From Vermamoeba vermiformis (Eukaryota), in NCBI GenBank assembly GCA_045837725.1, contig JBEWZL010000011.1, positions 186,001 through 250,000 on the forward strand: a stretch of DNA of 64,000 nucleotides, written 5' to 3'. A program made the position numbers and the translations under genes. The first letter of the stretch is position 1; every line of letters starts with the position of its first letter. Under the pieces are notes generated by a model, which was not told the DNA's origin, ran no database searches, and worked only from the letters and a program-made list of their open reading frames with translations. This document shows positions 14,058 through 64,000 of this stretch, piece after piece.

Positions 14058-17000
14058 TCACTTGTTGCTTGCAATATTATCGCCGGAGAGAGTCTGTTTT
14101 AATTCTTTCTTGATAGGCGCGAGAGGGGAGGAAGGATTATCGCGGTTTGCTAAATACAAACGTTTTAACGCATTGAATATAATCATACCGTATTTAGGTG
14201 TCTTCCATTCTGGCTCTACGTATGGCTCTGTTTGATCTGTCGTACTGACAGTCGGATTCGCAGCGATATTAGATTGATTATTATTATTATCACTAACGTT
14301 AGTATTGTTATTATTTGTATTATCATTAAAATCGTCTACTATTTCAGTGTCATCAACGGGTGTTTTGTCTTCAATTTGCTTCGTGTTAAATGACGCTTTT
14401 GTATAATCAAAATTGTCGTTTTTATGAACGGAAATAAATTCGGTAGGTGGTGTAACTGACGTGCATAATTTCAAACGATCAACGTTAATATAATGGTCGA
14501 GAATTTCTCCGTCTGGATTTGCAATTACGTATGTGAGCGGAGATCTTCGCGCGACAACGGTATAAGGACCTGACCAGGGTAAAGAGAATTTAGGAATTTG
14601 ACCTGGCACGCTTCGCGGCAGCCAATAAAACCAAACACGGTCGCCAATTTTAAATTGTGAGTCGCGACGATATTCATTATAATATTCTTTCATTCTATTT
14701 TGAGTCGCAACGATATTTTCGGTAATATATTTACGAGCAATATCTCTACCTTTAATAATTTCATCTAACACTTCATTATTGTTTAAATTTTCGTTTAAAT
14801 CTGGTGCGTCAGGAAAAATTCGGTCTATAATTTGATCAGAGTCATACCCGTATAAAGCAAAGAAAGGACTATAACCAATAGTTGGATGTTTTGCTTTGCG
14901 GTACGCGTTTTGAACGTATTTTAAATAAATATCCCACTCGCCTTGATTATCGTGGACGTATACTGATAAAAGCGTCGCGAGCGTATGATTAAATCTTTCA
15001 ACAAGTCCGTCTGTTTGTGGGTGATAAGTTGTTGTAAATGACGGTTTTGTTTTAAAATATTGTAAGATCTCTTCGCGAAATTTGTTTCTAAAACTCGATC
15101 CGCGATCCGAAAGAACTCTAAGCGGTGGATTATGCTCAATAACAACGTAATCTATATACGCTTTAGCTACTGATTTCGCACTAATGTCCTTTAACGGGAC
15201 ACAAATTGGAAATCGCGTTAAATAATCGCAAAATACGATAATATATCTATAACCACGTTTAGTTAACGGCAACGGACCAAGAATATCCATGCCGATCAAT
15301 TCCCACGGTTTTGAGACCTTAATTGGTTTTAAATAACCCGCTTTATAAACGCGAGGAGTCTTTCGTGCAATGCATTTAACACACGAGCGTTTAAATTTCT
15401 CTGGAATAGCGAGACATAATTTCGCGTGTGAAGGATTATGATCTTGATATTTTAATTTATATAATAGTCCGTTTTGCATATATAGATCCGAGCATTTACG
15501 TAAAAATTCAATCCCCGATCTGTGTGGTACGCAATCGCGTTCAAAGTAATCTATATATAATTTTAATTTAGGATCGTTTAATTGTTCTTGTCTGAATTTA
15601 TCCGGATTCGACGCAAAATTAAATTCGAGAGTAGATTCGATTGTCATCGAATTAATTGTGAAATTTGGAAGTCTAGATAGAGAATCTGCATTACCGTTTT
15701 TACGACCAGGTTTAGCACGAACTGTGAAGTTGTAATCCGCGAGAGCCATTTTCCAACGAGCAACCTTGCCGTTCATCGCTCTGAATGAGTCCATAAATTC
15801 GAGAGATTTATGATCTGTCTCTATTATAAAAGGTTGACCGTATAAATAAGATCTAAAATGTTTTATAGCTTCGACAGCTGCGAGGCATTCCCGTTCAGTC
15901 GCCGACGATTTAGCTTCACTATCCGTTAATTTGCGCGACCAATACGCAACAGGGTGGTCTTTGCCTTTCTCATCACATTGTGAGAGTACGGCACCGATTC
16001 CAAAAGCGGATGCGTCGACTTGAAGAATAAACGGTTTGTTAAAATCAGGATAATGCATAATTGGTTGACTTATTAAGCACGTTTTTAATCTATTGAATGC
16101 TGCAGAGCATTCTGTAGTCCATTCGAAAGTATTATTTTTCTTTAATAAATCCGTTAATGGGCGAGCTTTCTGCGCGAAATTACGAACGAATCTACGATAA
16201 TAATTACAAATACCCAAAAATGAGCGCACTTGAGTGACACTTTCTTTAATGCGGTCTTCATGCCAACTCGAAATTGCTCTAATTTTATCCGGGTCTGGTT
16301 TAATTCCTTTTTCGCTAATAATATGCCCGAGATAATTTGTTTCATAATAAGCGAATCTACATTTTGACGGTTTAACTTTTAGATTTGATCCACGGAGGCG
16401 ATCGAATACTTCGCGTAATCTACTCATGTGCTCGTCGAAAGTGCGCGAGAAAACTAATATATCATCTATGTAGACAAGACACGTTTTCCAATTTAATCCT
16501 GCTAGTGTCACGTTCATTAATCTTTGAAAAGTAGCAGGTGCGTTAGTCAAACCAAATGGCATGACGTTAAATTCGTATAAACCCGAATGTGTTGTAAAAG
16601 CAGTCTTTTCTTTGTCTTCTTCGCGAATTGGAATTTGATAATATCCAGAAATTAGATCTAACGTTGTAAAATATTTCATGTGCGACAAATGATTCAACGC
16701 GTCATCGATCCTCGGAAGAGGATATACATCCTTCTTTGTTACAGCATTTAATTTACGATAGTCAATGCAAAAACGTTTTGTTCCGTCTTTCTTTTTCACT
16801 AATAAGACAGGCGACGACCACGGAGAACTAGATGGTCGTATTTGTTGATTGTCTAACATGCGTTGGACAAATTCATCTATTTCTTTACGCTCTGACGGCG
16901 ATAATTTAGAGAATGGTCTAGACCTAACAGGGCCGTCTGTAACTTGAATTTCGTGTTTTACTTTATCCGTTGTAGTTTTTAATTCAGACGAGAATACGTC

Positions 17001-18010
17001 TTCGAATTCTTTAATGAATTCTTTTAGTGCCTCGATTTCGTTGCGACTTAATTTCGGATTAATTTGAGGGGACTGTGACGCAGGAAGGGAGACACGATCC
17101 TGTTGATGTACTTTTTCCATCGCGAGGATAACCTTAGTCCTTTCCGCATTCCCACGGAACATTGGATTCGAGAGACTTTGCGATGTTACGGGAGGGGTAT
17201 TAGCGGACGCATCATCATCTGAATCCGTTGTTCTAGTCCTATTCGTTCTATTCTCTGCCGAATTGTCGTCTAGAATAATTTCAAAACCATATTGATCTAG
17301 ACATACACTAAAGTTTCGCGTGGCTCGCGCTACTAGACTACTGTGCAAAACTAAAGTGTTTCGGTTCTCAGAGTTAGTCACGAACACATCGACAGTGTTG
17401 TTCGGACGTACAACCCCCATCTGTCTTCCAACAACTGCGCGATGCCGAGAATCAGACATCTCGATCAACAAATTGTCACCTACTTTCAAGTTGTTCTCCT
17501 TACTAAATTTACATCGAATAATAATTCCTGAGTGACTTGGCACTTTAATCGTACTACATGAATAGAGCGCAATTTCAAATTCTTTATCATTACTACAATC
17601 AATCATATTAATCTCGTTTGCTGTCCACGCAACTTTGTTCGCAATCATTAACTCAGCTTTAGCGGTAGTGAGCGTGTCCATTCCAAGTAATAAATCGAAT
17701 CTGAAATTCTCGATATATAATGCTGTAACAGGGATCGATACGTCATTGATCTCAATATTAAATTGTGCGTATTTGTTCGCATATATAATCTCAGAGTTTG
17801 CAACTCGTAATGTATATTGTCTCGTGTTGTATAATATGATATTGGGATACTTATTAATGAAATTGTTATTGATAACAGAGACTGATGCTCCAGTATCAAT
17901 TAATGCTTGAATATTAGTGTTATATAATTTGACCGTTACGAAAGGTAATTTCGTGGACTGAATTAAATTAACGAGCAGCTCAGAGTCCACGTCTAACTGC
18001 TCTGATTGCC
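14058..18010 (-). CDS. pol: Pol polyprotein (aspartic protease, RT, RNase H, integrase)
   Basis: LIDTGAS; RFCIDYRKLN; YIDD; QVDAS; integrase MDILG, SDRG, LVERFN; GPY module. Frame is open back to the slippery site. Confidence 0.95.
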
Positions 18011-18017
18011 ATTTCCC
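17952..18017 (-). promoter_or_regulatory. -1 programmed ribosomal frameshift signal (slippery heptamer + H-type pseudoknot)
   Basis: G GGA AAT at 18017-18011, 8-nt spacer, stem GAGCAG/CTGCTC, loop CGTGGAC complementary to downstream GTCCACG; pol is in the -1 frame. Confidence 0.85.
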
Positions 18018-19216
18018 TGCCTCTTTCCATTGTTGTTTTGTTGTTGATTTGGGTTACCGGTAAAGTTCGGCATCATGTTATTATTATACGTTTGGTTTGG
18101 ATTGCCGTTAAAGTTAGGATTCATGTTTGGTAACGCGTAAAATGGTTGAAACGGAAGGGCTTGAGGAAGTACGAAAGGGAGGTATTGATTTTGATTTTGA
18201 GGCATTTGTTGTTGTTGATTATTGTTATTGTTATATCGACGACGATTGAAAGAACCTCGTTGGTTACCACGGTTATCATTGTATTGTTGTGAATAATTTG
18301 GTTTCCCACGTTGAGGAAACGGTCTACCTCGGTTGGGGTTACCTCGAAAATTTGGCTTACCACGAGTAGAAATGAAATTTACGTCATCAATTGGATTGTT
18401 ATTATTTTGAGTAGTCTCGGTATCATTTACCTGAGTTACAGCATTCACAGTTCCAGTCGCGTTCGTTTTCGCAGCTTTCGGTTTGATGATAATACTCCAT
18501 GGCAAGTTGACCATTGCGCTTGAGAGTCGCGAGTAATCTGTCATCATCGAGACCATGTTCGTACGTACGTGCGTGCTCACGTGTTCTGGGAGGGCATCAA
18601 GCAAATACTTGATCTTGTCGGGATCTGACGATGGGTACGATGCAAAATGAGAGTTGAAGCGAGTGTAGAACTGATTAAAAGTCTCTTTTTCAGGGTCCCA
18701 TCTCTCGTTCGATATTTCGCTTTGCTTGACCATGTTGCTTTCAGGAGCGATGTAGTTTGTCGCAAGCCATTTAGCAGCTGATACCATGTCTTGTTTGAAC
18801 TCTTGTGATGCTCCATTCCATGCTTTCAAAGGGCCACCAGCCAATTTACGACCAAATATGAGCAACTGTTCCTTCGCTGATAACTTGTGAAATTGGACAA
18901 GGCTGTAGAACGATTCCAACCATGTGGTGCTATCCTTTTGTTTAACCATATCGAACGGTTTGCAATTGGTGTCTGCGATAGCGTCCTTCAATCGACGATT
19001 GCCAGCCAATTTATCGTTGAGCGTTTTGACTTCGGTTTTAAGTTGGTTGTTTTCGCTTTGGATGCGAGTAATATCGTTTCTTAATTGAGCATTTTCTTGA
19101 CGTACCAATTGGTGTAAATTATACAAGTCCATGTATTGTTTTCGATAATCTTCCAGATTTGATGCAGATGCGGGAGTACTTTCGCTGGCAATATCAATTT
19201 CTTCGTCTTCAGATAT
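17993..19216 (-). CDS. gag: Gag (N-terminus lost at the DNA-transposon junction)
   Basis: Coiled coil, retrotransposon capsid-like core (WLESF...LAGGPLKAW...ETFNQFYTRF), N/Q/R-rich tail ending QGNGNQSS*. Confidence 0.85.
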   Translation of the reverse strand: MSEDEEIDIASESTPASASNLEDYRKQYMDLYNLHQLVRQENAQLRNDITRIQSENNQLKTEVKTLNDKLAGNRRLKDAIADTNCKPFDMVKQKDSTTWLESFYSLVQFHKLSAKEQLLIFGRKLAGGPLKAWNGASQEFKQDMVSAAKWLATNYIAPESNMVKQSEISNERWDPEKETFNQFYTRFNSHFASYPSSDPDKIKYLLDALPEHVSTHVRTNMVSMMTDYSRLSSAMVNLPWSIIIKPKAAKTNATGTVNAVTQVNDTETTQNNNNPIDDVNFISTRGKPNFRGNPNRGRPFPQRGKPNYSQQYNDNRGNQRGSFNRRRYNNNNNQQQQMPQNQNQYLPFVLPQALPFQPFYALPNMNPNFNGNPNQTYNNNMMPNFTGNPNQQQNNNGKRQGNGNQSS

Positions 19217-19240
19217 GGCAAGGTCCGCGAGTCTCAGTCC
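19217..19240 (+). repeat. Left TIR
   Basis: GGCAAGGTCCGCGAGTCTCAGTCC preceded by ATAT (19213-19216). Confidence 0.9.
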
Positions 19241-19313
19241 AAATGATCGGAGAAATTGCATTTGGCAAATTGAATTTTTCATACCGTTTATTATAATTTG
19301 TAGTATGACATAA

Positions 19314-21368
19314 TTAAATATTTTGTTCTTCAAACTCTTCTACCAAATCATCACATTGCAAGTCTGATTCGGGAATCCACGAGTTAAATGAGTTGTCGTA
19401 ACCAGCCCATTTTACTTCGTACTGAACTTGGTTCTTAACTTTTCGTTTGCCAACAATGCATTCCACTTCAAATTCTTCACCTTCAGATCTTTCATCTTCG
19501 GTGGGAGCACTTGTTCCTTTTGGATGGTTGACTCCCACCACAGTTGTATGTCTTTCAATCCATTCTCCAACAGTATTCTGATTTGTGCACTTGTCAAATT
19601 GAAACTTTAAGCAGTGAGTACAGACGCAAGGCCATCTACGCATGTAAAGCTTGTTTGGTTGTCTTGAAAACACAAAGTCATAGCATGATTTAATGCCAGA
19701 AACAGTTGAAACATCTTCTTCAGTATCATTGTATTGAATATTTAGGACAGTTGAAGAACCTCCTTCAATTGTTGACCAATAAGCTGCTAAATCTTCTGGG
19801 GTGTCAATAAATCCATCTTCTTTCAGAACATGAATACGGGCTTTCTTTTTCAACAGTGCACCACGTCCATCACACTCTCCTTTTCCATGGTAAGCAGGGT
19901 CGATAATCCAGCGTAAATGAAGACCAAGAGTTGAGAAAACCTTGGTTCCCCAGTGCATTGAGCGACGATTCTTGAAGTGTTGCATTCCTCCATCAGTTAG
20001 TAGAATGCAGTGGCAAACATCATTGCCTAAATCTAACAGTGGAAGAAGTGCAGTAAATGCCTTTTGGAATACCACAGATGTGTGGTATAGGTAAGGTGAA
20101 ACAAACGCGTGGTACTTTTTGATGATGTCTGGCTGTTCTCTGGTACTTAATGCACTGTGGTACCAAATGGTTGCAATCAGGACAGTAGTTTGTCGCCTTC
20201 CATAAAATGCATTGCCAACTTCAATTGAACTAATGTGAGAGTAGTTCATTAGAAAGTCCCAGCGCATCATGACTGTATCCATTGGAAGCTGTGCTTTCAA
20301 TGTTTTGATTGTTGACTTCTGCCATTCAACATGAAGCTTGTGGTCTTTTGCTTTGGAGGTAGCCTCTTTGTAGCCCTGAAGGAATTGTTGCCTTGTACTG
20401 TTGTGCGAAACATGTACCATCTGATTGGGTGCATACTTGTCTCGATCATTAAGAAGTGCTTTTGAAGGAATAGGAACTATCCAGTTCTCAGCAGCTTGAG
20501 ATTGAAATTCAACTGGACAGTCATCAACAGAACAGGTGCAATCAGGTGTGCAGTCAGCACCATGATTACAAGCAGAACAGTAGAGACACAGGCACTGACA
20601 TCTATCATGCCACTGACGTCGTTTCTGCTGGAGCATCTTTGTCCAATGATGAGCAGAGGAGCAGGTTGGGCACAAACCAGAGTAGTAACGTTGCAAGTAA
20701 ACACACTTTGGAACTAAGGAGTAAAAGGTAGAACAGCCAACTCCATTTGGGCAATCAGTCTATTGACAATGTTAGTAAAAGTAGAAAATGGACGCGCGGC
20801 GCGTTGACGGAATGGGTACCTTGTACTGCTGAAAAAGTTCACCAATTGAGGAGTCACGATAATGCATAACTTGGAAGCCCCAAGAACCATTTGCTTCACG
20901 TTGGCGAACAACATTGGATGAATTGGCAGAGGCACGGCAGTGATCCAAAATCCAGTTTGTAACAAGAGAGGGTTCGACTGGGAGCCTGCTAGCTTTGTAT
21001 TGGGTCTTTGTAACAAACTTGTTGTGTTTGCCGGTTAATAAACTGTCACGAAGCTTTTCACGGGCATCCAATAGAGCTCTGGTAATGCTGCGTGTTGAAA
21101 TGCCAAGAACTTCTGCCTGAGCTTTGTCTGTTTCGTCTGACAACATGGTGCCCAAACTGCCACGAAAGAAGCCAGAAACTCGTTCTGATTTGGCGGCAAC
21201 GCGAAGAGCTTGTGAGTAATTGGAAAGCAAATTATGCTTTGTCGAAGAGCAACTGAGGACGTGCAAATGTGGTGCAATTCGTTGGTGCTTGAATACTTGA
21301 AGGAGCTCTGGTTCAATGCGCTCTGGCGGAATTTGAGAGAAAGTAGCAAGGAGTAGGTGTTGGTACAT
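19314..21368 (-). CDS. Sola2-like DDD transposase with Cys-rich region and C-terminal chromodomain
   Basis: Exons 21368-20820 and 20759-19314 (60-bp intron with TACTAAC); motifs WDFLMNY, LTDGGMQHFKN, YHGKGECDGRG; chromodomain EFEVECIVGKR...YEVKWAGYDNSFNSWIPESDL. An additional 5' exon is possible. Confidence 0.82.
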
Positions 21369-23670
21369 CTGTGTTATTGTTCGTGAAGGAGTACTTGAAA
21401 TAAATTAGTAAAGGGAGAGTGAACGCGCCGCGCGTTCATAGTTTTTATTAATTTTATTATGAAAAAAAAAATAAAAAGCAGTTGTTCTTTCATTATTTTC
21501 AATTTTTCAAACAGTGCACCACAAATGAAAAAATCTACTCCTACACCAGAGTCGAGCAAGGCTTTGCTCGATAAATGGCTCACAAACGAAGGCAATCCTA
21601 CTTCAGTCCCGTTGGCTCAAATGACTGTGCGAGGTAAAGAAAAATATTAATTTTAAAAATCACAAACGCGCTGCGCTTTCACGCCAAAGAGCTGATTATT
21701 ATTCACAAGTGTTGTAGTATTTTTAAGCAATATTGTTACCTTTTTTTGAACGCGCAGCGCGTCGATAAAAAATGCATAATTTTTGGACGCGCGGCGCGTT
21801 CATTGTTGTTCTCACTGCTCTAATAATTTTCAATAGGAACATACCGCACTGTTACTGAAGAAGGAAAAGCCACGATTAAGAACAACATTATTGCGCAAGG
21901 AGCTGGCGACTTCATGAATGGTTTAAATCGTACGGAGCCATTTCTTGTTCAACTGCTGCCGCCCGACGAAAAAACGAAGAAGAAAAGCAAGCAACCCGAG
22001 TACCGAATTCTTGGCGGCAACCATCGATACGAGATATTCAAGGAAATGTAAGTTAATAATGGTGTTGGTTTTTCACACAATACTAAAACAGCAATAGGGG
22101 TGTTACGGAATGGCCTTGCTACATTCTTGCTGCTACGGTTGACGATGTAAAAATGACAGAGTCGGAGACTGAGCAATTGGCTGGCATGGACAACGGCAAA
22201 TCCCAGTACGGAATCGCAAAGGCTGGCTGGTTTGAATAGTTCGAGAAGCTAAACCGCTATCTGCAATTTCCCGGCATCGTCGTCACTAAGGGAAAACGGA
22301 CAACTACGAACTGGGAGGCAATCTATGCGCTGTCTGGTAATCACGAAGGGCTATCCGTCAACACCGCGAAAAAGCTAGCAACTGCACGCACAAACACGGT
22401 GCAGGCAACTCAGGAGAAGAAGTTCGAAAAAAACCCTTTGTTCATTCGCATGCAAGCCCTACACGCCAAGTACGGGTACAATCTGCCAATCAAAATGAAG
22501 ATGTTCACCGAAGAGAAGAGGTTTTGGCAAATGGACACGTTTCAACAGGTGGAGGCAGTAAATCTGTTCATTGAATGCATCGAACAGAACAAGTGCAAAG
22601 GAACTGGAACTGGTAAGTCATTCAAAAATGTCTTTCTTTATGAACGCGCCGCGCGTCAACAAAAACTTTCTTTGTTTGAACAAAAAATTGTACTTTTTTC
22701 TGAACGCGCGGCGCGTTGACAACACTACATTGTTTATGAACGCGCGGCGCGTCGATAAAACTTAGCTTTTTATGAATAAAAAATTGGGAATTTTTCTGAA
22801 CGCGCGGCGCGTCGACAAATATTTGAATTTTTTGTACGAAAATTGCCTATCTTTATGAACGCGCCGCGCGTTGACAAAAACACTTTGTTTTTTTATAACA
22901 ATTCTCATTCACTTGTAGATTGGAGTTCAATGATTGACAGTGTTCTCCGACGTGCTAAAATCGTCGATTATATTGGCAAAGCACAACCTCAGGCTGATTT
23001 GCTTGAGGAGTATACTGAAGCTGTTGGTCGTGGCGAGTTTCCTTGGTTGGAAGAAGCGTGCACGGATGCACTAGATAACGCAGCAATGCAGCACCTTTTG
23101 AAATGCCTTGAGAAGGGCACCGCTGCTAAATCTGTAAAAGCACCTGTTCCTGTGTTAGATGGGCCGGTACGAATACGTTCACTCATACAACTTTACATTC
23201 TAACTTTTTTCACAGAAATCACCCTCTGCCAAGAAACCGCAGTCTTCCAAGAAGGACGAGCTTCTCAAGGAGAGAATCGATGCACATATCGATTCAGAAA
23301 ATGTTGAAGCCAGACCACCAGAAGAAGTTGATGCAAGCCAAAGTGAAGCTGAACCTGACGATCTTGCTGATAAGAGACCTTCGCGGCAAAAACATACAAC
23401 TAAGGCTGCTGACGAAAACACGGAGGCCGCAGAAGCCACTGTGGACAAGCCTGTTAAGGAGAAGAATTCTGCGGAGGCAGCTGGTGACAAGCCTGCTAAA
23501 GGCAAAGATGCAGCACAGGCTACTGGTGACAAATCTGCTGCTAATAAGCCTGCTAAAGGCAAGAATGCACAGGCAGCTGTCACTGATCAAGAACCAAGCG
23601 AAAAAGGATCTCCCAAGAATACACCTAAGAAAGGTGATTCCCCTCCTGTAAGCGTGAACGCGCCGCGCGT
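20792..23670. repeat. Dispersed palindrome ACGCGC-N-GCGCGT, 11 copies
   Basis: Cores start at 20792, 21423, 21666 (degenerate), 21750, 21787, 22644, 22704, 22740, 22800, 22859, 23658; all intronic or intergenic. Confidence 0.92.
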
Positions 23671-24729
23671 TTTGCCCTACGTATCTAATTTAATGTTTTA
23701 GGATGCCACACTGTGGAAAGTTTCTGCCACAGAGCAACTTACCACTCATTTCAATGCTCATTACAATGTTGTTCCTGAATTTGGCTTGCAGCTTCCAATT
23801 GTGACGAAGGCTGACTTGGTCTTTTATAACTGCACTGGAAGAATTTCTAACGCACATTGGAATGCAATGATGAAGTCCGTCCTCGAAAATGGCAGGGTTG
23901 TGATTATTGCTGAGCCAGCAGACTCCCCAACTATTTTCACTGGTCTTTCCGCCAAGGAAAATACTTTGGAGTTCGACTTCAAGTACACTGGCGTGATGTC
24001 ATATCCTCCTTCGCGGGTCCTTCAAAAAGACCGCCCTGCAGCAACTTGCTGGGACTTCTACTTTCTCAAGGTGAAAGGTGGCCAGCCACACTTTAATGAT
24101 GAAGATTTGGATGGGGCACGCCACAGAAGTCAATACTGGTCTCATGGTACCTTCAAAGCACCAACACAGGAAGAGCACTTGCACGCAAGAGCTTCCACTG
24201 CTGCACCTCCTATGTATCCAAGGCAGCCTCCAATTGAAATGTTTGAGTTTGTTATTCGGGTAAGTTTCTTTTTTTCACCACCTTTCCTTTGCTGACTAAT
24301 TGATAGGCCTTTGCTCCGCCTGCCCCTTTTGTCATTGTTTTCAACGAGTGCTCGGCAGCATCTTACATTGCCTGCGTCAATATGACAGCCACCTACCTTG
24401 GTTTCATGCTTACTGACAACAAGGAGGTTGCATGCCAACATGTTTCAAGGTTCATTTCCTCACGCTTGTCCAGCCAAGAAGATGCCACAGCCCTTCAAAA
24501 CACTTTGTTTGAGATTGTTACAAACAAAGTGCAAGAAGGTGATGAAGATGATGAGCCACTGGGACTGCCTGACACTCCTGCTAAGATGGCTGTGGATGAG
24601 GATTTGCCTGAGACCCCTTATGTGCCTGGCATCATGGATGAAACCCCAGCAGCTTCAAAGAAGCGCAAACGTGATGAACCTTCGTCACCTACAAACTTCA
24701 CCAAGAAGTCCAAATCTAATGCCAAGTAG
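21525..24729 (+). pseudogene. ParB/Srx-like N-terminal domain + low-complexity linker + degenerate DNA methyltransferase-like domain; one premature TAG
   Basis: Six exons; YRILGGNHRYEIF, EWPCYIL, EQLAGMDN; C-terminal ADLVFYN...VLENGRVVII...YPRQPPIEMFEFVIRAFAPPAPFVIVF...YLGF; TAG at 22237-22239 with the frame open on both sides. Confidence 0.65.
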
Positions 24730-24930
24730 GGCATTTGACTTGTAAAACTTTTTGCCTGTAGCAGGTTTTGTTTTACAATAAATATATCTTTTTCATACAA
24801 AATATTCTATTTCGTAAACTTTGTTTTTGCTCAAGTACGCTCTGTTTGTTTTTAACATACTATTTATTTAATTTAGTTGTATGAATTATTACAGTTTCGG
24901 AACATTTCTTCGAAAAATTGAATTTCTTCA

Positions 24931-24954
24931 GGACTGAGACTCGTGGACCTTGCC
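24931..24954 (-). repeat. Right TIR
   Basis: GGACTGAGACTCGTGGACCTTGCC followed by ATAT (24955-24958). Confidence 0.9.
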
Positions 24955-25302
24955 ATATTTTAATTTTTTTTGCACTTTGCCGAATCCTTTCCAAAATCAA
25001 TTTTTAAGCTTGTAACAGCATATTTACATGTATTAAAGCTATTATTTTATTATTCTGATCATCTTTTTCTACCAAAGCCTGTCATCAGCATTGTCATCAG
25101 CCCTCTCATCAGTTTTTGTCATCGGCACCCAAATTTTCGCAAAATTATTTCGGATTTACCTTGACTTTCTCATTGTTTTTGATCATTTGGGCATAATTAG
25201 CCTCCTCTGAAGTATATTTGGGCAAATTTTGAGACGCGCTGCCCTCGGCCTAGCGGCCTCGGACAGCGCCGAAGATCCCATTGTATAATCAATCACTAAT
25301 TA

Positions 25303-28300
25303 AAGCAAGTTGTATAGTGCAGCATTGGTGAAACAACTGGGAACCTTGACATTTTGCAACATCCATTGGCAAACGGGCTGTCCAATTGACTTGGAAATCA
25401 CCTGTCCGCCGTTTAGTGCTGGTAGTGCCATAGCTGGAGTGTAGTAAGTCTAGCTAATATATTTTACAATGTAAAATTTTGCTTACCAGCCTTCAGCTTT
25501 AATTCACGCCCATACTCGCCAGAACACACTGCACAGCTGGTGTTATCAATGAAGACTAAGCTTGCCTCAAAGATTTGTCTTCATGCCACATTAGTGAAAG
25601 CTACAGATGGTTCCCTTCAGTTTGGAATAACCGAAGGTCAGCATCGCCTTTCCACTCTTGCAACTCTCTATGCTAGCCACCCCCAAATTGCCAATTCCAC
25701 CTTGATTCTGCTTCAAGTTTGTCGAACAAAAGAGGTATATACATATCAATAGCATCCTTCTTATCCACCTGTGTTTATTAATTCATCACAGGACATCTTA
25801 GAGCTAACAAGCCAGCAAGGTGAAGCAGACTCAAATGCTTTAAGGGTGACTTGGGTGGATTCAGTATTCAATATTTGTCGGTTATTGCAAACCAACCCCA
25901 ATACTCACAACTGGACAACTACAGACTTCAGAGTTGCATTGGGAGCACCTTTTGAGAAGCAACAGGCCTACTGTAAGTGAAATGCATTCGGTTCACCAAC
26001 TATTTACTAACTGGAACAGTTAAATACTTGAAGATTGCAAAAGGCCTTGGAGAAGAAGCTTTCAGATATATTTTTAATTGTGTTCGAAAGCGTGCAATAG
26101 CCGAAATGAAGGGGTTACCAACAGAAGAGCCTTCATTCTCGTATAGCAAGCTAGAAACCCTCATCAAGCATTCACATGACACTCAGCTTAAATTAGTGCT
26201 TCAGAGTGAGTAGAATTGCTAATTACTATAATTACAGCTCTGTGATAACTGGTGCACTATTCAATACTGACTCTGACAGGAAATAATTTTGAACAAATTG
26301 GCCTATGGGAGAAACACGTTGCTGAAACACTCAAATCTGCCAAACAACACGAAAAACATGTGACAGTGTTCAAACAAGAAGTTGAGAGCTTAATGAAGGA
26401 GACAGATATCCAAAAACAATTAATACTCGAAATGGGTCTGCAATGGCTGACTGGTCCCAGTTTTAGTTCAGCTGAGCTTGATGACAAAGATATAACACGC
26501 AGGTTAAGTGTCATCAAGCAGATTGGCCAAATATTGAAGTTCACCGAGCATTCTGACTTCAGTGCAACAGACTTTCTACTGATTGACATCTGCTCTGGAG
26601 CTATTGATGATGAGGACCTTAGTAAACACATGAACAGAGCTGCTAGACTCGGTTGCTGGGGACTTTGTAAGCAGTGATTATTTATAACGACATGGTGCTA
26701 ACAAATGCAATAGGGATGCAAACAAAGGGCTTTGAGTTACCTAAGCTGGATGGTCTTATTCTTGTTCCTTTGTGCATTCTAGAAAACACTTTGTTTTCAC
26801 TATTTGCACCTCCAACAATAACAACAAGCTGTATCTTGAGCGTATTTGCTGCCCTCATGTACAAAGTAAGCTAATTCTATCTGCAAATCATTCTAACTGT
26901 TGCTTAGTTGACAGCTTCTGAGAGTTCTTTCAAAACAGCTGATCATGAAAGATTTATATTTAATGCAGCATTGGCATCATATATTTACTTCACAAAGCAA
27001 GGTACAGGTTTCTTTTTTTGCAATCACTGACTAATCACCTGTTCAGAATCAATTTGCGTATGGGATCTGTTTCCGGTCTCTTACCCAAGCTTGACTCGCT
27101 TCCGAACTGCCTACCAGGCGAATATCCAGTATAATGCACTTTGGAAATCCTCTGAACTTCAAATTGCTTTTGCCGCAAGCATTCAGGATGGATTCTCAAC
27201 ATTAGGGCCTCCACCTAAACGGTCCTTAGAAGTGCTGACTGCTGATGAGGTTAACAGGCTGGTAACAACAGTGCCTGCAGAGTCTGCTTTGCCAGAATCA
27301 GTTACTTCAGGAATTCCTCTGCACTACACCCAACCAACGAAGATAAAGTTACAACTAAAGCACAAATATGCACTCATGAATATTGAACATCAACTGCTCC
27401 CATATTTGAAGGATTTCAGCAAAGCAGACGCCATCTTTTCAGGGTTGCTTGAAAAGAGAAGCTTTAAACATAGTGTAGATGCAAGCAGCACACACCTTTA
27501 TTTTTTACCATACATCACCCTTGGTATGAATAGAATAATTACATGCCACTGTTACTCACCGTACAATTAAGAGCGCCAAAATATTGAAAGGAAGCTGCAA
27601 CATCATCTCGAATTGGCCTCCAAGTCATTATTTGAATGCACTCCGGAGGATTTTAAACTTTCGAACTGTTTGCTTAGAAATTTTCAGCACTGCCACAAAT
27701 GGGACAACATGTATATTTATCATGAAACAGTCTTTGGATCTTTGGGCTTTCATTTCGACTCCTTGGTAAGTTAAGTAAGGTTATGGAGCTAAGTATTAAC
27801 AAATTTCAAGGGTACTCCTGCAGTAAATATCTTGTTAGGACCTCCAGGATCAATGAAAATCTGGTACTTCATTGATGCAACACCTGAGAACTTGACTCGC
27901 TTTAGAAAATGTAAGTAGTATTTATCTTCTACTCTTTTCTAATGTTGGTCTGCATTCAGTGTGCGTACGGTCTTCTTCAAAAATTCAGGACATATGGATT
28001 ACACCTGAAACCCTAACCAAGAACGGAGTGACATTTCGTGTAGTGCATCAACAATGTGGAGACATGCTGATTGTTCCACCACTGCAATGGCATTGTGCTG
28101 TCTCAGCCCCCAATATCCCGGTAATTGTATTCATTAAACAAAAAAAAATAACTTACCACAGCACTAGGTTTCTCCAATTACTACAGGCATTGCATATACA
28201 ATCCTCCCCCTTCCTTGCTTACAACAAGCCATTGAGTTATACTTCAATTACACTACAACTCCAATCCCTTTGGAAATCATTTTGGGAGAGATGATTAACA

Positions 28301-29768
28301 AATCGTTCTTCAGCTCTTTATCACTTGAATATCAAAAAAGTTTAAAAGTTCAACTCACAAGAATAGTCAACAAATTCTCAAGCCTCAAAGATGCAAAGTT
28401 CAATACCCCACCATCGAGTAGACAATGTACAATCTGTGGTCGAGACCTTCCTTACTTCTTTGCAACGTGCAAGAAACTAGCTCTAAAATGCGACACAAGC
28501 AAGAAGCTGTTTTGCTGCTTTGTATGCTACCATCTTGATGTTTTTTCATCGTGTGGTCATGGGTTCACGTTATACAGATGTCACTATTCTGATACAATTT
28601 ACGAGCAACTAGAAAGGTATGTGTGTCCCAATATCAATCTCTATAATAATTTAATTTAGACTTATCGTGCAATTACACCCTGTAACTGAAGAAGGACAGT
28701 TATCATCAAATGACAATTCAGTTCTACCCAATGAAGCTGAGGCATTACAACATTCCATCATTGTACAAAACTCAGAGCTTGAAATCAATGAAACAAATGA
28801 ATTGCATCAATCTGTTTTCCCACAACTCGTTGCTGAAAATGAGGAACAAACTTCAAACACACTTGGCACTGTAAATGACCAATTCAAAAAGGTACAATTA
28901 ACTTACATAAAAATATCACTACTAATCATAATACAAGTACTGTCTCCACATTCTACAATGGACAAAGAGTTTATCTCCAGAATATTATCAGCTATTAGAT
29001 CTAGAACACCCTGTCATGCATCACTATGGAAACTTGGAGGCGTACTTGGTGTCAAACTTCAAATTACTCAGTGTTGGTTACAACAGTGCATCAACAGATA
29101 GCATTAAGCTTGACCAAACATACAAAACAATCACACAGCAGTTTTTTTCGTATGTTTACAAAAACAATAATGTATCATTTTAACATATCTAGCAGTGATA
29201 AGCCTTCAGATATTTTGCTGAAGAAGATGCAAATCATTAACGACACCTACTTCAAGGTGAAAAACCCTCATCAATACTTTGAGAACATTGAACTATTCGC
29301 CCAAAAGTTTAATTCCAGCTTTTTTGGATCACCAATGGATAATCAGGCCTTACACATTGATAGTGCCTGCTTTTTAGCAACAAAAAAAGCATTTGGACGA
29401 CTCAACAACACCCAAAAACAATATTTCATTCAACAGTAAGTACTTCTGGACTTGAAGTCAAAATTTCCTCTAATTGTTTATTTAGAGCTGCCCCAATGTT
29501 TGCTATGAGAGCAAAAAGTCTTGCACCACACCTGATTTTTATTCATGCAGCTCTTAATGTAGCTAACGTGCTATTGCCTTCCACCACCTTTGAAGAATTC
29601 ATGGTGTTTACCAAGAAGAAGAACACATACACTGTTTTTCATGCTGCTTGGGAAGGAGCTCAAGTTTTTGTGTTGCCACCAATGCAAAATTCCTTTGGGG
29701 GCCTTTCTTCTGCTGATGTCATTAGCTTAGCAGACAAATGTCTATCAGACTTCTTTAAAGATATTTAA
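25303..29768 (+). CDS. Large multi-exon ParB-like + JmjC (KDM4/5/6-like) + Cys/His zinc-finger protein, 5' end apparently missing
   Basis: NSRPYSPEHTAQLVLSM...ITEGQHRL; JmjC YIYHETVFGSLGFHFDSLGTPAVNILLG..MKIWYFI...HQQCGDMLIVPPLQWHCAVS; then CTICGRD...CKK...CCFVCYH...CGH. Confidence 0.72.
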
Positions 29769-29921
29769 CATAGCATATACTTCTTAACAAGCTTTATTAT
29801 ATATAATAAATACTTTTAGCAAAAACAACATCTTTGTTTACCTTTTGATCTTTGCTAAAAATTTACCACATTTTTATCAAAGACAATTTGTCTAAGCATT
29901 GAGAAATCCTTGTGGCCCTAG

Positions 29922-30223
29922 CAGAGTTAATAAATCTTTCAAACTCCATTATAGGGCAATTCACGACAGATGGAGGGCCAATCAAACATTGTTCCAAAGC
30001 CCAACCAAACAATTAGTGGTAAATTGGATTGTTGTGGCATGGAATCGAGTCGAACAGAATATAGTTAAAAAGAGCTTTAAGGTCTGTGGTATATCAAACG
30101 ACCTCAACGGAAGCGAAGAAAGTGAAGTGGCTGTCAAATTTCATCGCATGTTGTCATAAATTGTACAATAAATCCAGATTTTTCCAAACTGTTTATTTTT
30201 CCGACTTATTCGGCAGTTTACAG
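29922..30223 (+). mobile_element. 3' remnant of a pogo/Tigger-type (DDE_1) transposon
   Basis: VNKSFK...VVNWIVVAWNRV..NIVKKSFKVCGISNDLNGSEE, then a TIR-like end CCGACTTATTCGGCAGTTTACAG followed by TA. Confidence 0.7.
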
Positions 30224-48334: not shown

Positions 48335-51322
48335 TTAATTGATCACTTTCTTAATGGTGCTAGTGATGTTGTTGTTGTAGGCTGCGGACAATTCATCCAA
48401 TTCGCCAGCTTCAGCCATACTTAAGTAACCTCCGATTTCCTTCTTGTCCTCTTTCTTGGCGAACAACGCTACGTGGACATGTTAGTCCGATATTAAGTGA
48501 AACAAAAGGAACATAGTTCGTGTGATCCGCAAAGTTACACGCTAAACAGATGTGTTGGCAAGCAATACTTACGATCGTATATTCTCGGAGATACCGGTGT
48601 ATTCAAGTGGTGTTGCTTCGAGAACACTTTAACGAACTTCTGCAAGTCGTACTTCTGGTTATCAGGGATACGATAGTGCAAGATCTTCTTTTTCTTGTCG
48701 ATAAAGGTGATCGAGTAACCGCCCTGTGAGCTAAATCGAATCAAGTAGGCGCCGCGCTTGCCAGAAACAATCTTGGCCTCGGCCTCTTTAGCATTCAATT
48801 CGCCGTGGAACCATTTTTCTTCAAGTAATGACTTGATCTGGTCCAAGATCTCAGGTCCTTGCACGGGTCCAAACCACTTCAAGAACTTCTCAAAAGCATC
48901 CAATGTAACCATTCGCTGCGGGTGCTATAATTGGGGGCGGTAAATTTAGACAAAAAAGTAGAAACAAATCAACGGCTCTCGTTCAATGAATTTACCTTGT
49001 CAACATCCAAGACAGCTGCAAGGCACTGTGCGCGAATATCGTCTGCGCTCACGTTTTTAGCCTTGATGAGCTTCAAGAAAGCTTGGAGGAATGTGTCCCA
49101 AGCAACTTCCTTCTTTTTCTGTGTTAAACGTGATCAGATTTTAGATCCAGATGACGAATCAAGAAACAAATCATGATTGCTTACGGGACCGAAGTTCTTC
49201 CACATTTGTTGGCAAGCCTCGTTGCCTTGAGTAACGGCTTCGAGAATAATGTCGTCGAAAACTTTTGATTCTAAGATCTCTTGGAAGCTCGGTCGTTGCT
49301 TGGGGTCCTTGTGCCAGCAACGCTCCATGAGCTGTCGGAGCTTCTTAGGGCAGCTCTCAGGAATCTCGGGTCGCTCGTTTCGGTTCGAAACTGCATCGAT
49401 CAATTGATGGATGCTGCCGTATTTGCCTTCGTACGGCCTCTTCTCAGTAAACAATTCCCAAAGAACTGAAGATATGATAGGTTAGCCTATGATATTTACG
49501 CAATATACGGTAGTAAGCGGTATGAAGCGGTATATCGAAAATTAACCGTCAGGAATTCCGCATCTTGTTTTGTGATCGATCACGAGATAGACTTACTGAT
49601 ACCAAAAGCGTAAACGTCGCACTTCTCGGTGGTTTCGGGCTTAAGTTGGAACATCTCAGGAGGCATGTACAAAGGAGTGCCACCAGTGTTCATCTTGTCT
49701 TTCTCGCTCATTTTGTCGTCTTTCAGTCGTGACAAACCAAAATCGGCAATTTTGACTTTGAAGTCGCTCGTCAGCTGTTAATATTGACACAGTTAGACGA
49801 GGGCACGCACAGTATATTAATAGAGTTGTGACGTACCAGTAAGTTAGCAGTTTTGAGATCCAGATGCAACAAAGGGCTGGGCTTCATGCAGTGCAGCCAG
49901 TTCATACCAGCAGCTGTCTCACGAGCGATCTTCATCTTGCGGTGGAAACTGACTTTGATTGATTTATCTTTCAACACATCTTCAACGCTACCATTGGCTG
50001 CAAGTTCGGTAACTGCGCACAAAGAAAACTCGTTAATACTCCATATGTTAATAATATCAACGCAATCGTAACGATCGTGCAGCAACCGCTGTAGTAATTC
50101 TTAAAATAGATTGACGGATCTCTATCTGTGTAGTCTTTTGACTCGTGCGCTGAGAAACGATGACTTACCAATCTTTAACTTTCCAGGCTGTGTGCAAGCA
50201 CCCATAAAGAGCAGCAAGTTAGGATGCTTAAGGGCGCTAGAATAGATTTGCGTTAGTGATCGGTTAGCGCGTGGATTGACTCCTGGATGATCATAGGTTC
50301 GAGCAACTAAATTTACCTCATAGTTTGACACTCGCGCTTGAATTCTTTGGCACTCGACTCGTCCAATGTAGTAGTGCGCAATACCTTCACGGCAACTTCT
50401 TTGCCACGGCACATGCCTCTGTACACGGTACCGAATGAACCTGATCCGAGCTTTGCTTTCTCGACTGGAACTGTATCGGTACCCACTAAAATTGCGTAAT
50501 TATTAGTACCGTAACTGATATAAATGGATAATTGTCGAAAGAGCTGGAATTTCCGAAATAATTAAAAATAAGATCCTATCGCGACAGGAAAAATTGAAAA
50601 TATGGAATTCTTACACTTGATTTCGCTGTCTTCAATTTCCCAACCACCGAATCCGGCTAAGTGAGCGGTATCATCTTCGTCGTCTTCCAAATCCAAAGAG
50701 GGATCGGTTGTTGTCTCTTGCAAGAGAGTGCTATGTGTAACTGAAACGTATTGAGAGGAAGCTGAAGGGTCTGATCCTGCTTTCTTTCCCTATATTGCAA
50801 ATTTATTAAAATAAGAGCAAGATATTGTGGGCCGCTATGATTTTCGCGACGGATTAACCAAAATATAATCAATTTTCTCAACAAGAATCTACTTGTGCAA
50901 AATAAAAAGCAGATTAAGAATAAATTTATAACAATGGAAGTCCGTTAATTGCAGGATTAATAACATCAAATAATTACAATAATGTAATAATTTTTTATGG
51001 GTCTTGATCTTCGTTACTTTAATTTGTATATTGTCCTTACCTTCGATTCTGCTTCTAAAATATTAGCGAGCGTAACTCTCCATTTATGTTTGGCTTGAAA
51101 TAAATTTTTTCTCAAATCTAAGTATTGAGATTCGAGCGCGTTCTCCTGCACCTCTAAATCATCAATTTCCTGTCTCTTTGATTTTTTGTACTCTGTTTGT
51201 AGACCAGCTAATATTTTGTTGATGCTAACGTTGATATTTTCAATCTGCTGAGACAAACTGCCCAGCATCTTGGTCGAAGCTGTAATCTCAGCTTCGAGAT
51301 CCTTCAACGCTTTGTCGGCCAT
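48335..51322 (-). CDS. TKL-family protein kinase with C-terminal SH2 domain (SHK-like) and N-terminal coiled coil
   Basis: LGSGSFGTVY, VAVK, HLDLKTANLL, DFGLS, GTPLYMPPE, DVYAFG; SH2 WFHGELNAKEAE...GAYLIRFSS. Confidence 0.9.
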
Positions 51323-61926: not shown

Positions 61927-64000
61927 TTACAAAAGCCATTTTGTTGCTGAAATCTCTCTGAACGTGTGAACGAACCAAGGCGACAACCAACCATCGCCAT
62001 TATGAACGGCAATGTTCCCATTCTCTTCCCACTTCTCCAATTCTAACTTGATGGCACTGTTATGTTTGGCTGTTCTTGTGGACAGTCGGGCAGATGGAAT
62101 ATTTGGACTAAGAACCACAACCAGGTCAGAGCTAAATTGTTTGATAAGACCCTTCAGTTCTTTGTGCAAGCCTGAGGGAGAGATCTGCAAAGGTCATGTC
62201 AACAAATGCTGTAGGTAAAACTTGAGTGTACCTTTGTTTGGCCTGCAACAACGTTACGGCATTGAACAAGCAAGAACTTTTGGAATACTTTTCCTTTGTA
62301 GAGGGGAATGATAACGTTGGTAAAGTTTGATTTTGCTTCATTAATGACAATCAAGTGGTTTTGCTTGATAATGTCCAAGGTTGAGTTAAAGTTGTCAGCG
62401 GTAGGTTCTAACTTGCCAATTAATTTGATGACTCCTTTCCAGCAAGCCTAAAATCAGAGTAAGTAGTCTATAAGATAATGAAATGCATACATCTAATCCA
62501 GCAGTGCCATCAAGTGGTATAAGCTGGCTAAGTGGTACTGCAGGGGATTCTGAAGCTCCAGCAATTAACTTGTACCTCAGCCACAAAGTAACAGCAGCAG
62601 CATCTTCAAGTAAGTCTCCTTTGAATGGCAAATTTGTTGCAGCTCTACTGGAGGTGTGGAATGATTGAACAACAGTTTGAAGTGTTATTGGCACTGGTTC
62701 AAAACTGATACCCAGATTTTGAGGGATGCTGAATTGACTGAAGGAATCAAGTGGTTTCTTTAATCTCTCTGGGTAATAGAAAAATGGCATTGTGTAGTTT
62801 CGAATCAGTGAGACTGGGACTTCAGTTGTTCTTTGCTCAGTGACTGGAATTGAGTATGGAATCAAGGCTCCAGTAGCTTCCAATGTCTCGGATGTGATAG
62901 TTGGTGAGTAGATTTGTGCAATGGATAATTTGGGAAGACACAGTGCTGCTTCAACTTGCAATTTTTCAACATCCTTAATGTCAAACAGTGCTCCAAGACT
63001 AGAGACATTTGGCAATGCTTTCTCAATATCAGCCTTTCTCAAGAACTTCTGTTCGTCTCCTAAACCAACACTAGCATATGCATTTGCTAATCCTGTAGCA
63101 AAATATTCAATGGTTCTTGGCACTCCACAGCAATAAATCCAACGTTTGTAAAGTTGTGCTGAAAGGTCAAAGGACAGTAAATTGTCTGTTGTAGGTTGAT
63201 TTGGTGCATGGGCTAGTTGCTGATTTAACACAAACTGACAGACTTCATTCAAATAGTGGTGACTGAGTAATGGATCCATTGGCATTGAGTAAAGAAGGTT
63301 GTAGGCTGCAGGGTCATTTGCAAGATACAAGCCACCTAATTTGGTGCCTCCCTGCTTGATGGTTAGCATTCACATTACAAGGGAATAAACCTTACCATTG
63401 TCACAAGAAACTTCTTGTTGAGGGTTCTTGCAAAATAGGCAATGTCTCTAAACACCTTATGTGCATTGTTGTTGGTTGTGTATTCATTGGAGTCAGGAAG
63501 AAGGGTCTAGAAAAAAGATCAGGACAATTGTACTAGGAGTTATTGCTTACATGACATTCATCAATGATCAGCAAAGTCAAGTAGTCTTTAGTGTCATAGC
63601 AATCAACATGCACCAAGGGATGATATGGAGGAGAATTTGCATCAACACAACGGTCAAATATTTTGATCAATTCAGGCACAGTTTAAGTCCTTCAAATCTT
63701 TGCAGATTTTGCAGCAGGAAATACTTCAATGCTGAAGACAAACTTCTGTCAGAAAAGAAGTCAATGCAGAGATTTGTACTTACAAGGTTCGCCTGTTGGT
63801 GCTAGCTGAATTGATGCAATGCCATACATCACTCGTTGTTGCATTAGTGTTTGATGGAGTCTCACCAAAAACCGAACTTTAGCTTGAGAAGTCACCTTAG
63901 CTTGTTCCAATTGGCTAATTACTGGTTGTGTTATACGTAGATCGACTGTGAGTTTGTCGTTGAGGAATGAGTGAATGATGGCTGGAGATTGTAAGGCACG
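61927..64000 (-). pseudogene. Crinkler/CR-effector-like NTPase + restriction-endonuclease-fold gene, apparently frameshifted, running off the window
   Basis: Walker B-like LLIIDECH, GVPRTIE, GDLLE, LLQAK; frame breaks around 63680-63900; strong CpG depletion. Confidence 0.55.

Follow-up and report, generated by a model that had tools for sequence, protein, structure and literature searches.

In a 64,000-base stretch of Vermamoeba vermiformis DNA (contig JBEWZL010000011.1; the whole stretch is called the window below), positions 19217-24954 are a single copy of a DNA transposon of the cut-and-paste type, a compact, multi-copy element from a microbial eukaryote. The 5,738-bp element carries a transposase gene and a divergently oriented accessory gene, and it holds eleven CG-rich 13-bp palindromes, every one of them in non-coding DNA. 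Our best reading of this arrangement, for which we see the chances as evenly balanced, is that the accessory protein is the predicted binder of the palindromes. An initial annotation, made from the sequence alone, had described a terminal inverted repeat (TIR) transposon with divergent transposase and accessory genes, and this description is borne out by the 24-bp inverted repeats at the ends of the element and by the gene models given below.

The palindrome ACGCGCNGCGCGT (ACGCGC-N-GCGCGT) has 10 exact matches in the window, all within 20792-23670, where 100 dinucleotide-preserving shuffles give an expectation of 0.00. When up to two mismatches are allowed, there are 12 matches against 1.23 expected, namely the ten exact copies, a copy with one mismatch at 21666 inside the element, and a match with two mismatches at 48747 outside it. 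The initial annotation had counted 11 copies and had seen none elsewhere in the window. Eleven is the correct number if the imperfect copy is included, but not for exact copies; the restriction to the element holds for zero to one mismatch, with no such copy in the other 58 kb of the window, which contain several host genes and promoters, and it does not extend to the two-mismatch match. The conserved site is longer than 13 bp and reads roughly TGAACGCGC-S-GCGCGTYSA.

All eleven copies fall in the non-coding DNA of the gene models, which makes up 1,247 of the 5,738 nt (chance P ~5e-8); the claim that they are placed solely in introns and intergenic DNA of the element thus stands. No strand is assigned to the sites. 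Palindrome 1 (20792-20804) is located in the 60-nt transposase intron and palindrome 2 (21423-21435) in the 156 bp that separate the two start codons. Three copies at 21666 (the one with a mismatch), 21750 and 21787 occupy accessory intron 1 (203 nt; copies spanning 21666-21799), five at 22644, 22704, 22740, 22800 and 22859 occupy accessory intron 3 (306 nt; copies spanning 22644-22871), and palindrome 11 (23658-23670) lies in the 54-nt accessory intron 5. The introns with a motif are 54, 60, 203 and 306 nt long, those without one 47, 49 and 50 nt; an intron stays at minimal length except where it contains sites. The copies in intron 3 belong to a repeat unit of ~60 bp, with start-to-start spacings of 60, 36, 60 and 59. 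The flanks in these units retain 63-78% identity, whereas the palindrome is still perfect.

The 11 motifs hold 52 of the 207 CpGs of the element. The observed/expected ratio (o/e) of CpG is 1.08 for the window, 0.63 for the element minus its motifs and 0.58 for the element's exons. Neither ACGCGC nor GCGCGT occurs as a half-site in the terminal repeats, and recognition of the ends and recognition of the palindromes therefore look separate.

Ends, gene models and relatives of the element

The left terminal repeat (19217-19240, plus strand) pairs with the right one (24931-24954, minus strand) over 24 bp, with 23 of 24 bases complementary and thus one base off, and no further copy of these repeats is present in the rest of the window. 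ATAT directly adjoins both ends (19213-19216 and again 24955-24958, no strand). It is a possible target-site duplication, the length of which is ambiguous (2-4 bp) because ATAT is itself palindromic. Members of the Sola superfamily make a 4-bp target duplication; the accessible parts of the Sola literature held no usable data on target-site duplications or termini for comparison. ATAT also follows the right repeat in two other right-end junctions, which were found in contigs of the DNA run X1. These contigs cover 30 of 30 bins of the element stretch, with many single-base differences, and in them the right end of the element is joined to no fewer than two other flanks. The family thus has several copies and has been mobile. 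In one X1 contig, telomere-like AACCCTAAA stands directly before the right terminal repeat (at 24930), which suggests a truncated copy or an insertion adjoining telomeric repeats.

The transposase gene is on the minus strand and consists of two exons over a GT-AG intron (20760-20819), the whole encoding an intact 664-aa protein. Exon 1 (20820-21368, 183 codons) gives weak matches to helix-turn-helix (HTH) families, which are weighed below. Exon 2 (19314-20759, 481 codons plus stop) contains a Cys-rich region, the presumed catalytic core and a C-terminal chromodomain (19326-19472, minus strand; residues 430-478 of the exon frame). The chromodomain scores above the curated cut-off of Pfam PF00385 (54 bits versus 25.1, E 1.5e-14). 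Only six close homologues of the transposase (51-100% identity) were retrieved from 5.8 billion clustered proteins, and five of the six carry a precomputed chromodomain. Blocks of the D/D/E type are kept across an alignment of 7 transposase sequences. The catalytic part matched no Pfam family; the ESM Atlas offered DUF7869 (0.85, carried by 38% of the cluster's members), which at below 0.9 is a lead only and which is not mentioned in the literature searched.

The accessory gene (21525-24729) is on the plus strand and has seven exons (21525-21633, 21837-22047, 22098-22612, 22919-23166, 23216-23647, 23702-24259 and 24307-24729) over six GT-AG introns, giving 831 codons with one in-frame TAG. The exon model is supported by the homologue P0008, which is uninterrupted across the exon 6/7 junction, and by P0011, P0012 and the relative L002, which cover exons 2-3. 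The gap between the two start codons (21369-21524, 156 bp, no strand), which contains the palindrome at 21423, is presumed to be a shared bidirectional promoter. Only close kin of the accessory protein were retrieved: 4 at E <= 0.001 in an exhaustive phmmer search based on exon 6, 2 at E <= 0.01 in another database search, and none in a word-based search aimed at longer relatives of exon 3.

Seven loci (L002-L008) came out of a metagenome scan in which the transposase alignment was the query. L002 and L005 represent one element with a transposase ~64% identical to that of the window, and the transposases of L003 and L004 are 48% identical to it. L006-L008 were rejected as relatives: they are bacterial IS66-type elements that have only the word RWDFLMNY and a few following residues in common with the transposase, which we treat as chance or convergence. 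The divergent gene pair is found again in L002, where accessory exons 2-3 show ~33-50% identity; L003 comes without its upstream region. In L004 (456-1700) the accessory gene ends after exon 1, and pieces of a gypsy-type reverse transcriptase and protease come next, a nested transposon arrangement.

L002-L005 are strongly depleted in CpG (o/e 0.16-0.30; TG/CA 1.44-1.51). A transition-decayed form of the motif, AAYRYRYNRYRYRTT, occurs six times in L002 with at most one mismatch, versus 0.95 expected, and none of 200 shuffles reaches six. Five of these six motifs mirror the window in position, with three in accessory intron 1, one beside the transposase start and one in the transposase intron. 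This diverged relative thus keeps both the gene pair and the positions of the motifs, and CpG depletion is a property of the family. As a post-hoc observation, P0012 (66% identical) continues past exon 3 into the intron as ...DAPRV..., the peptide that the palindrome encodes in one frame.

Domains of the accessory protein

The ParB_N-like core, with its GGNHR motif, maps to 21986-22155 on the plus strand and is split by intron 2 (22048-22097). To score it, a hidden Markov model (HMM) was built from 74 Pfam-defined bacterial ParB_N (PF02195) domains from whole genomes and applied to locally spliced proteins. The spliced window protein reached 15.8 bits (E 6.7e-7 for one comparison) over residues 87-126. 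The same HMM gave 9.4 bits for spliced L002, 5.7 for spliced P0011 and -0.4 for unspliced L002, and 1000 shuffles did not exceed 4.0. An hhalign comparison of the N-region with ParB_N yielded 72.5% (P 3.3e-5, 27 columns), compared to at most 0.7% in 100 column shuffles. In both the window and P0011, GGNHR aligns to the GhrR of the profile. The match consists of the strand/GxxR-helix/strand core alone, and the remaining domain is without detectable similarity. These alignments give modest reason to consider the N-domain ParB-like in its core part. ESM Atlas leads for P0011 include ParB_N (0.86; 18% of one cluster) beside DUF3723 (0.89) and DUF6551; all are below 0.9 and are leads only.

A number of results count against the ParB-like protein named in the initial annotation, a claim that profile comparison supports modestly for the core and that finds no echo in the standard resources. 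The similarity is limited to 27-40 residues, and the key arginine is not universal, as L002 and L005 have GGSHQ. No match to the ParB family was obtained in Pfam (with the separate exons, P0011, P0012 and the L002 frame including its in-frame intron), nor in NCBIfam, PHROGs and PADLOC (with exon pieces and homologues), and sequence and profile searches of the PDB with exon 2, exon 3 and the alignments A3 and A4 returned nothing relevant. AlphaFold2 models of L002:1949-2440 (7-row alignment) and of P0008 (6-row alignment) were unusable, with predicted local distance difference test (pLDDT) values of 37.9 (mean) and 38.1, respectively. A Foldseek search of the PDB with the L002 model had nothing at E <= 0.001; a ParB entry at rank 15 (E 1.6) is noise. 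The blank standard searches of the N-domain are partly explained by the intron that splits the candidate domain. Likewise, no ParB was found among phages by tblastn with P0011, the L002 N-domain and window exon 2.

The C-terminal half had gone unnoticed in the initial annotation. A block similar to DNA methyltransferases, in which the motif I region is degenerate, lies at approximately 24209-24441 on the plus strand, split by intron 6 (24260-24306). Residues ~170-244 of P0008 match PHROG 18293 'methyltransferase' (E 9.8e-5), PADLOC MTase_II (E 2.5e-3) and NCBIfam PRK13699 (E 0.12); the Pfam N6_N4 methylase family (PF01555) matched neither P0008 nor the window exons. A tblastn search against phages gave 60 weak matches (best E 0.04), and among the 25 matches listed most of the annotated ones are DNA methylases. 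P0008 can be aligned with two bona fide phage N6_N4 methylases over the block from TQKP to motif I, and hhalign against 29 methylases yielded 56% (P 1.1e-4, 95 columns), with at most 1.5% in 60 shuffles. On the other side, a home-built methyltransferase HMM scored the window C-domain at -2.3 bits, and shuffles reach 6.5.

N6_N4 methylases bind S-adenosylmethionine (SAM) with the FxGxG loop of motif I, and their motif IV, (D/N/S)PP(Y/F/W), is catalytic. At the SAM loop (alignment A5), the phage enzymes read DPFMGSGST (L009) and DNCMGSGTT, P0008 reads VNELTGAS, and the window reads FNECSAAS; the glycine-rich loop is thus absent from the window sequence, which has no glycine here. The window, P0007, P0008 and P0009 share no conserved (D/N/S)PP(Y/F/W) motif. 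The residues at the candidate motif IV positions are YNCTG, YQCMG, YTCTG and WVLDS, and DTPPW of P0008 corresponds to DATLW in the window, in a part of the alignment that is without profile backing. As judged from these alignments, the C-terminal half is DNA-methyltransferase-like with its SAM-binding glycines lost, and the domain is probably inactive.

Between the two ends of the protein, the linker exon contains three imperfect 33-nt repeats (23438-23569) that encode Lys/Ala-rich units of the KPAKGK type. They may serve as a non-specific DNA-binding segment or as a disordered spacer.

Candidate binders of the palindromes

The accessory protein would combine an N-terminal ParB/Srx-like core, an HTH-like stretch, a Lys/Ala/Glu-rich linker and a C-terminal methyltransferase-like domain. 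ParB has its own site, parS, and the 13-bp OB operators are the sites of KorB. By analogy, the 11 palindromes would most likely be the element's own putative sites for a dimer of the accessory protein. Loading at the palindromes could then cover the central 2.9 kb with a nucleoprotein domain, and such a domain might control the divergent promoter, the chromatin and methylation state of the element, or both. Which protein binds, binding as a dimer, spreading, the use of cytidine triphosphate (CTP) and an effect on silencing are all points that we infer. Any anti-silencing role is speculative. A more far-reaching version would be a eukaryotic, chromatin-level counterpart of parS/ParB, in which a putative clamp of the bacterial type loads at the 11 sites, spreads, and shields the promoter and the sites from CpG methylation by the host; this would amount to sequence-specific anti-silencing. 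The dead methylase domain would then act as a reader or blocker of CG sites, and the intact CpGs of the motifs would be a footprint of protection. We consider this version distinctly unlikely.

Beyond the domain searches, several observations weigh against the accessory protein as the binder. The exact palindrome is found in none of 8 loci searched, and L004, the 48% relative, has no significant motif (2 versus 0.91 expected, a number reached by 43 of 200 shuffles). The accessory frame is broken at codon 154 by a premature TAG (22237-22239, plus strand), where P0011, P0012 and L002 have Tyr. X1 contig record 4 (21875-22316) has five listed differences from the window, none of them at the TAG; the stop is therefore apparently common to the X1 main variant, and the frame is broken there as well as here. 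Real RNA expression of the element was not seen in three RNA-seq runs with the same species label, each of which was read to ~46-48%. The runs gave 12, 10 and 1 partial reads, all on the A/T run at 21442-21477, and 29 of 30 bins were empty. Among the sequencing runs listed as containing the element stretch, none is recorded as RNA. Given the stop and the lack of real RNA reads for the family, full-length accessory protein from this copy is unlikely, and the copy is probably not making it. Neither the shared TAG nor the result of the three RNA runs had been noted in the initial annotation.

The two genes nevertheless bear the mark of selection. Between the window and X1, 40 listed differences were classified, with 57 more outside this listing. 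In the modelled exons there are 28 of the 40, of which 23 are synonymous and 5 non-synonymous (9 and 2 in the transposase, 14 and 3 in the accessory gene). This excess reveals purifying selection on both genes. Downstream of the stop the accessory gene has 11 synonymous and 3 non-synonymous differences. Possible explanations for constraint downstream of a shared stop are a recent spread of the stop, gene conversion, or read-through.

The transposase itself could also bind the sites. The palindromes would then be internal sites for its N-terminal HTH-like exon, used in autoregulation or in a transposition complex, and the accessory protein would be otherwise employed. Many transposases bind repeated sites within their own elements, and here one site lies within the intron of the transposase gene and another shortly before the start of that gene. 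Exon 1 is conserved in L002, L005 and L004, and matches DUF134 of Pfam (E 0.0048) and an Xre-like HTH (E 0.058). Both matches are, however, below every curated cut-off, and 9 of the 11 sites are inside the accessory gene. No motif copy or half-site is present in the terminal repeats and the ~1.3-1.6 kb by each end, which is unusual for repeats bound by a transposase, and we hold this explanation to be unlikely. Quite unlikely in our estimate is a host factor, such as a CGCG-box or MluI-box transcription factor or a CpG-binding protein, for which the palindromes would be promoter or enhancer modules. The position of one site in the 156-bp gap, with the others within 1.4 kb on either side, would suit this role, and we take the half-site ACGCGC to resemble host factor sites such as CGCG boxes. 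A host factor would, however, not easily explain the lack of any copy with zero to one mismatch in the 58 kb of flanking DNA with its host genes and promoters, and ten copies of a perfect dyad of 13-17 bp are rather what one expects for a dedicated dimeric binder.

The palindromes might also, or instead, be targets of modification, in that versions of the accessory protein with an intact methyltransferase-like domain would methylate them (N4-cytosine or N6-adenine) and thereby mark the element or block CpG methylation by the host. The relation of the C-domain to DNA methylases of the N6_N4 type and the intact motif CpGs in an otherwise CpG-poor element are in line with this, as is the proposal that the ParB and N4C/N6A methylase protein of Sola1-1_Ec32 may modify its own transposon (PMC12477816, from the part of the article available). 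Against this stand the SAM loop without glycine in the window, the lack of a conserved (D/N/S)PP(Y/F/W), and the old copy L002, in which the motif CpGs have decayed like their surroundings; we rate such a role as improbable. The least credible explanation, and to us a highly improbable one, is that the array is functionless, a palindromic minisatellite spread by tandem duplication and gene conversion. It would agree with the tandem ~60-bp unit under the five intron 3 copies and with the lack of transcription seen in the three RNA runs. It does not agree with copies in five separate non-coding intervals, including introns of just 54 and 60 nt, with a palindrome that is perfect inside the ~60-bp units though their flanks have diverged, or with positions kept in L002 at about 50-64% protein identity.

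Genomic surroundings and comparison with known systems

The window is eukaryotic DNA with spliced genes. A Ty3/gypsy-type gag and pol region (14058-19339, minus strand) abuts the left end of the element; the whole window lacks direct repeats of at least 40 nt that could be its long terminal repeats. What lies on the right of the element is not the continuation of the uninterrupted copy seen in an X1 contig, and the local arrangement is therefore more complex than a simple insertion. In the 6 kb at the right of the element (24001-30000), CpG o/e is 0.31-0.46, versus ~1.1 elsewhere. A plus-strand gene that looks multi-exonic begins there with an open reading frame (ORF) at 25426-25752, which includes ...ITEGQHRLSTL..., a stretch reminiscent of the DGQHR/DGQQR motifs of the ParB/DUF262 superfamily. 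The ORFs from 25426 onwards have no match in Pfam or PADLOC and no similarity to the proteins of the element. A second CpG-depleted patch (62001-64000, o/e 0.22) extends over a 324-aa ORF (62395-63369, minus strand) and may be another methylated repeat.

Two well-known systems resemble the element in parts. Like bacterial ParB-parS and KorB-OB, it has a gene for a putative ParB-like protein beside several copies of a short palindrome. The KorB operator, with 13 bp, a central G/C and about a dozen copies on RK2, each bound by a dimer, is formally very like the present array. However, the bacterial systems serve partition and regulation in prokaryotes, with ParA or a repressor as the partner and with clamping that is proven to depend on CTP, whereas the present one would work in eukaryotic chromatin, has no ParA, and shows detectable similarity in the GxxR core alone. 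In the VANDAL transposons of Arabidopsis, the accessory protein VANC acts on short motifs in the element's non-coding DNA, and anti-silencing has been shown experimentally. The combination of a transposon-encoded accessory protein with short non-coding motifs is common to both cases, but VANC is not ParB-like. Unlike VANDAL, the present family is CpG-depleted and silent in the three RNA runs, and anti-silencing is hypothetical here.

The pairing of domains in the accessory protein has precedents as well. ParB genes with DNA methylases in prokaryotes and phages, and fusions of ParB-HTH with Dam in chlorophytes and chytrids, were described by Iyer et al. 2016 (PMC4738411). According to the accessible part of that article, a ParB-type domain is paired with an amino-methyltransferase, as it would be here, and the module is likely of phage or prokaryotic origin. 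The methylases described there retain their catalytic motifs and the eukaryotic ones are Dam (group 2), whereas the matches found here are of the N6_N4/M.RsrI type.

Close in overall design is Sola1-1_Ec32 from Ectocarpus (Dinatale et al. 2025, PMC12477816), a DNA transposon whose transposase and accessory genes are on opposite strands. Its accessory protein, with ParB-like and N4C/N6A methylase domains, is described as one that "may bind and epigenetically modify" the transposon from which it comes. We compared the two by description, from the part of the article available, and they agree in the opposite strands of the two genes and, with modest evidence for the ParB part, in the kind of domains. 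They differ in size, Sola1-1_Ec32 measuring 21.5 kb with a protein of 1,104 aa and the present element 5.7 kb with 831 aa. The available part of the article does not mention a site array such as the one present here, and in the present element the glycine loop of the methylase is lost.

A site array is part of the description of PAG3, from red-algal Plavaka elements (Petroll et al. 2025, bioRxiv 10.1101/2025.02.11.637652; again available in part and compared by description). PAG3 has a ParB-like N-domain (HHpred e-value 0.29) and a 2-oxoglutarate (2OG) oxygenase domain. Adjoining tandem inverted-repeat arrays are proposed as its binding sites, and its authors draw the comparison with VANDAL. 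Both cases involve a weakly detectable ParB-like N-domain and an inverted-repeat array in or beside the accessory gene, with 9 of 11 palindromes in accessory introns here. They differ in the second domain, which is methylase-like here and a 2OG oxygenase in PAG3. Its hosts are giant elements of the EnSpm/Plavaka, Zisupton and Fanzor types, and its repeats are adjoining tandem arrays, whereas the sites described here are distributed over the promoter gap and over four introns, from the one gene and the other.

The initial annotation had proposed a candidate new system. This did not hold up, since ParB-like accessory proteins, their combination with a methylase, inverted-repeat arrays and the comparison with VANDAL are already in print (PMC12477816; bioRxiv 10.1101/2025.02.11.637652), as far as the available parts of these sources go. 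It is rare for a transposon to encode an accessory protein by which its own DNA is recognised and acted on. The ParB-like class dates from 2025, when it was proposed for giant algal elements on the basis of weak domain evidence, with no experiment mentioned in those parts. Here the example looks small and cleanly defined, with two genes in 5.7 kb, a precise dyad of 13-17 bp in eleven copies, a conserved gene pair with conserved site positions, and purifying selection. Binding of an accessory protein to the element's own sites is directly testable in it. It also raises the question of what role a methylase-like domain that lacks a SAM loop might have at CG-rich sites when the genome depletes its transposons of CpG. 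Were the transposase or a host factor to bind the sites, the element would be an ordinary transposon with unusual regulatory repeats. As far as the available parts of the sources allow a comparison, the element is a further, compact example of transposon-borne ParB-like accessory proteins with inverted-repeat arrays and not a new kind. What it adds to the algal systems, for which they are not mentioned there, are sites within the introns of both genes, a chromodomain on the transposase and a methylase-like domain that is degenerate.

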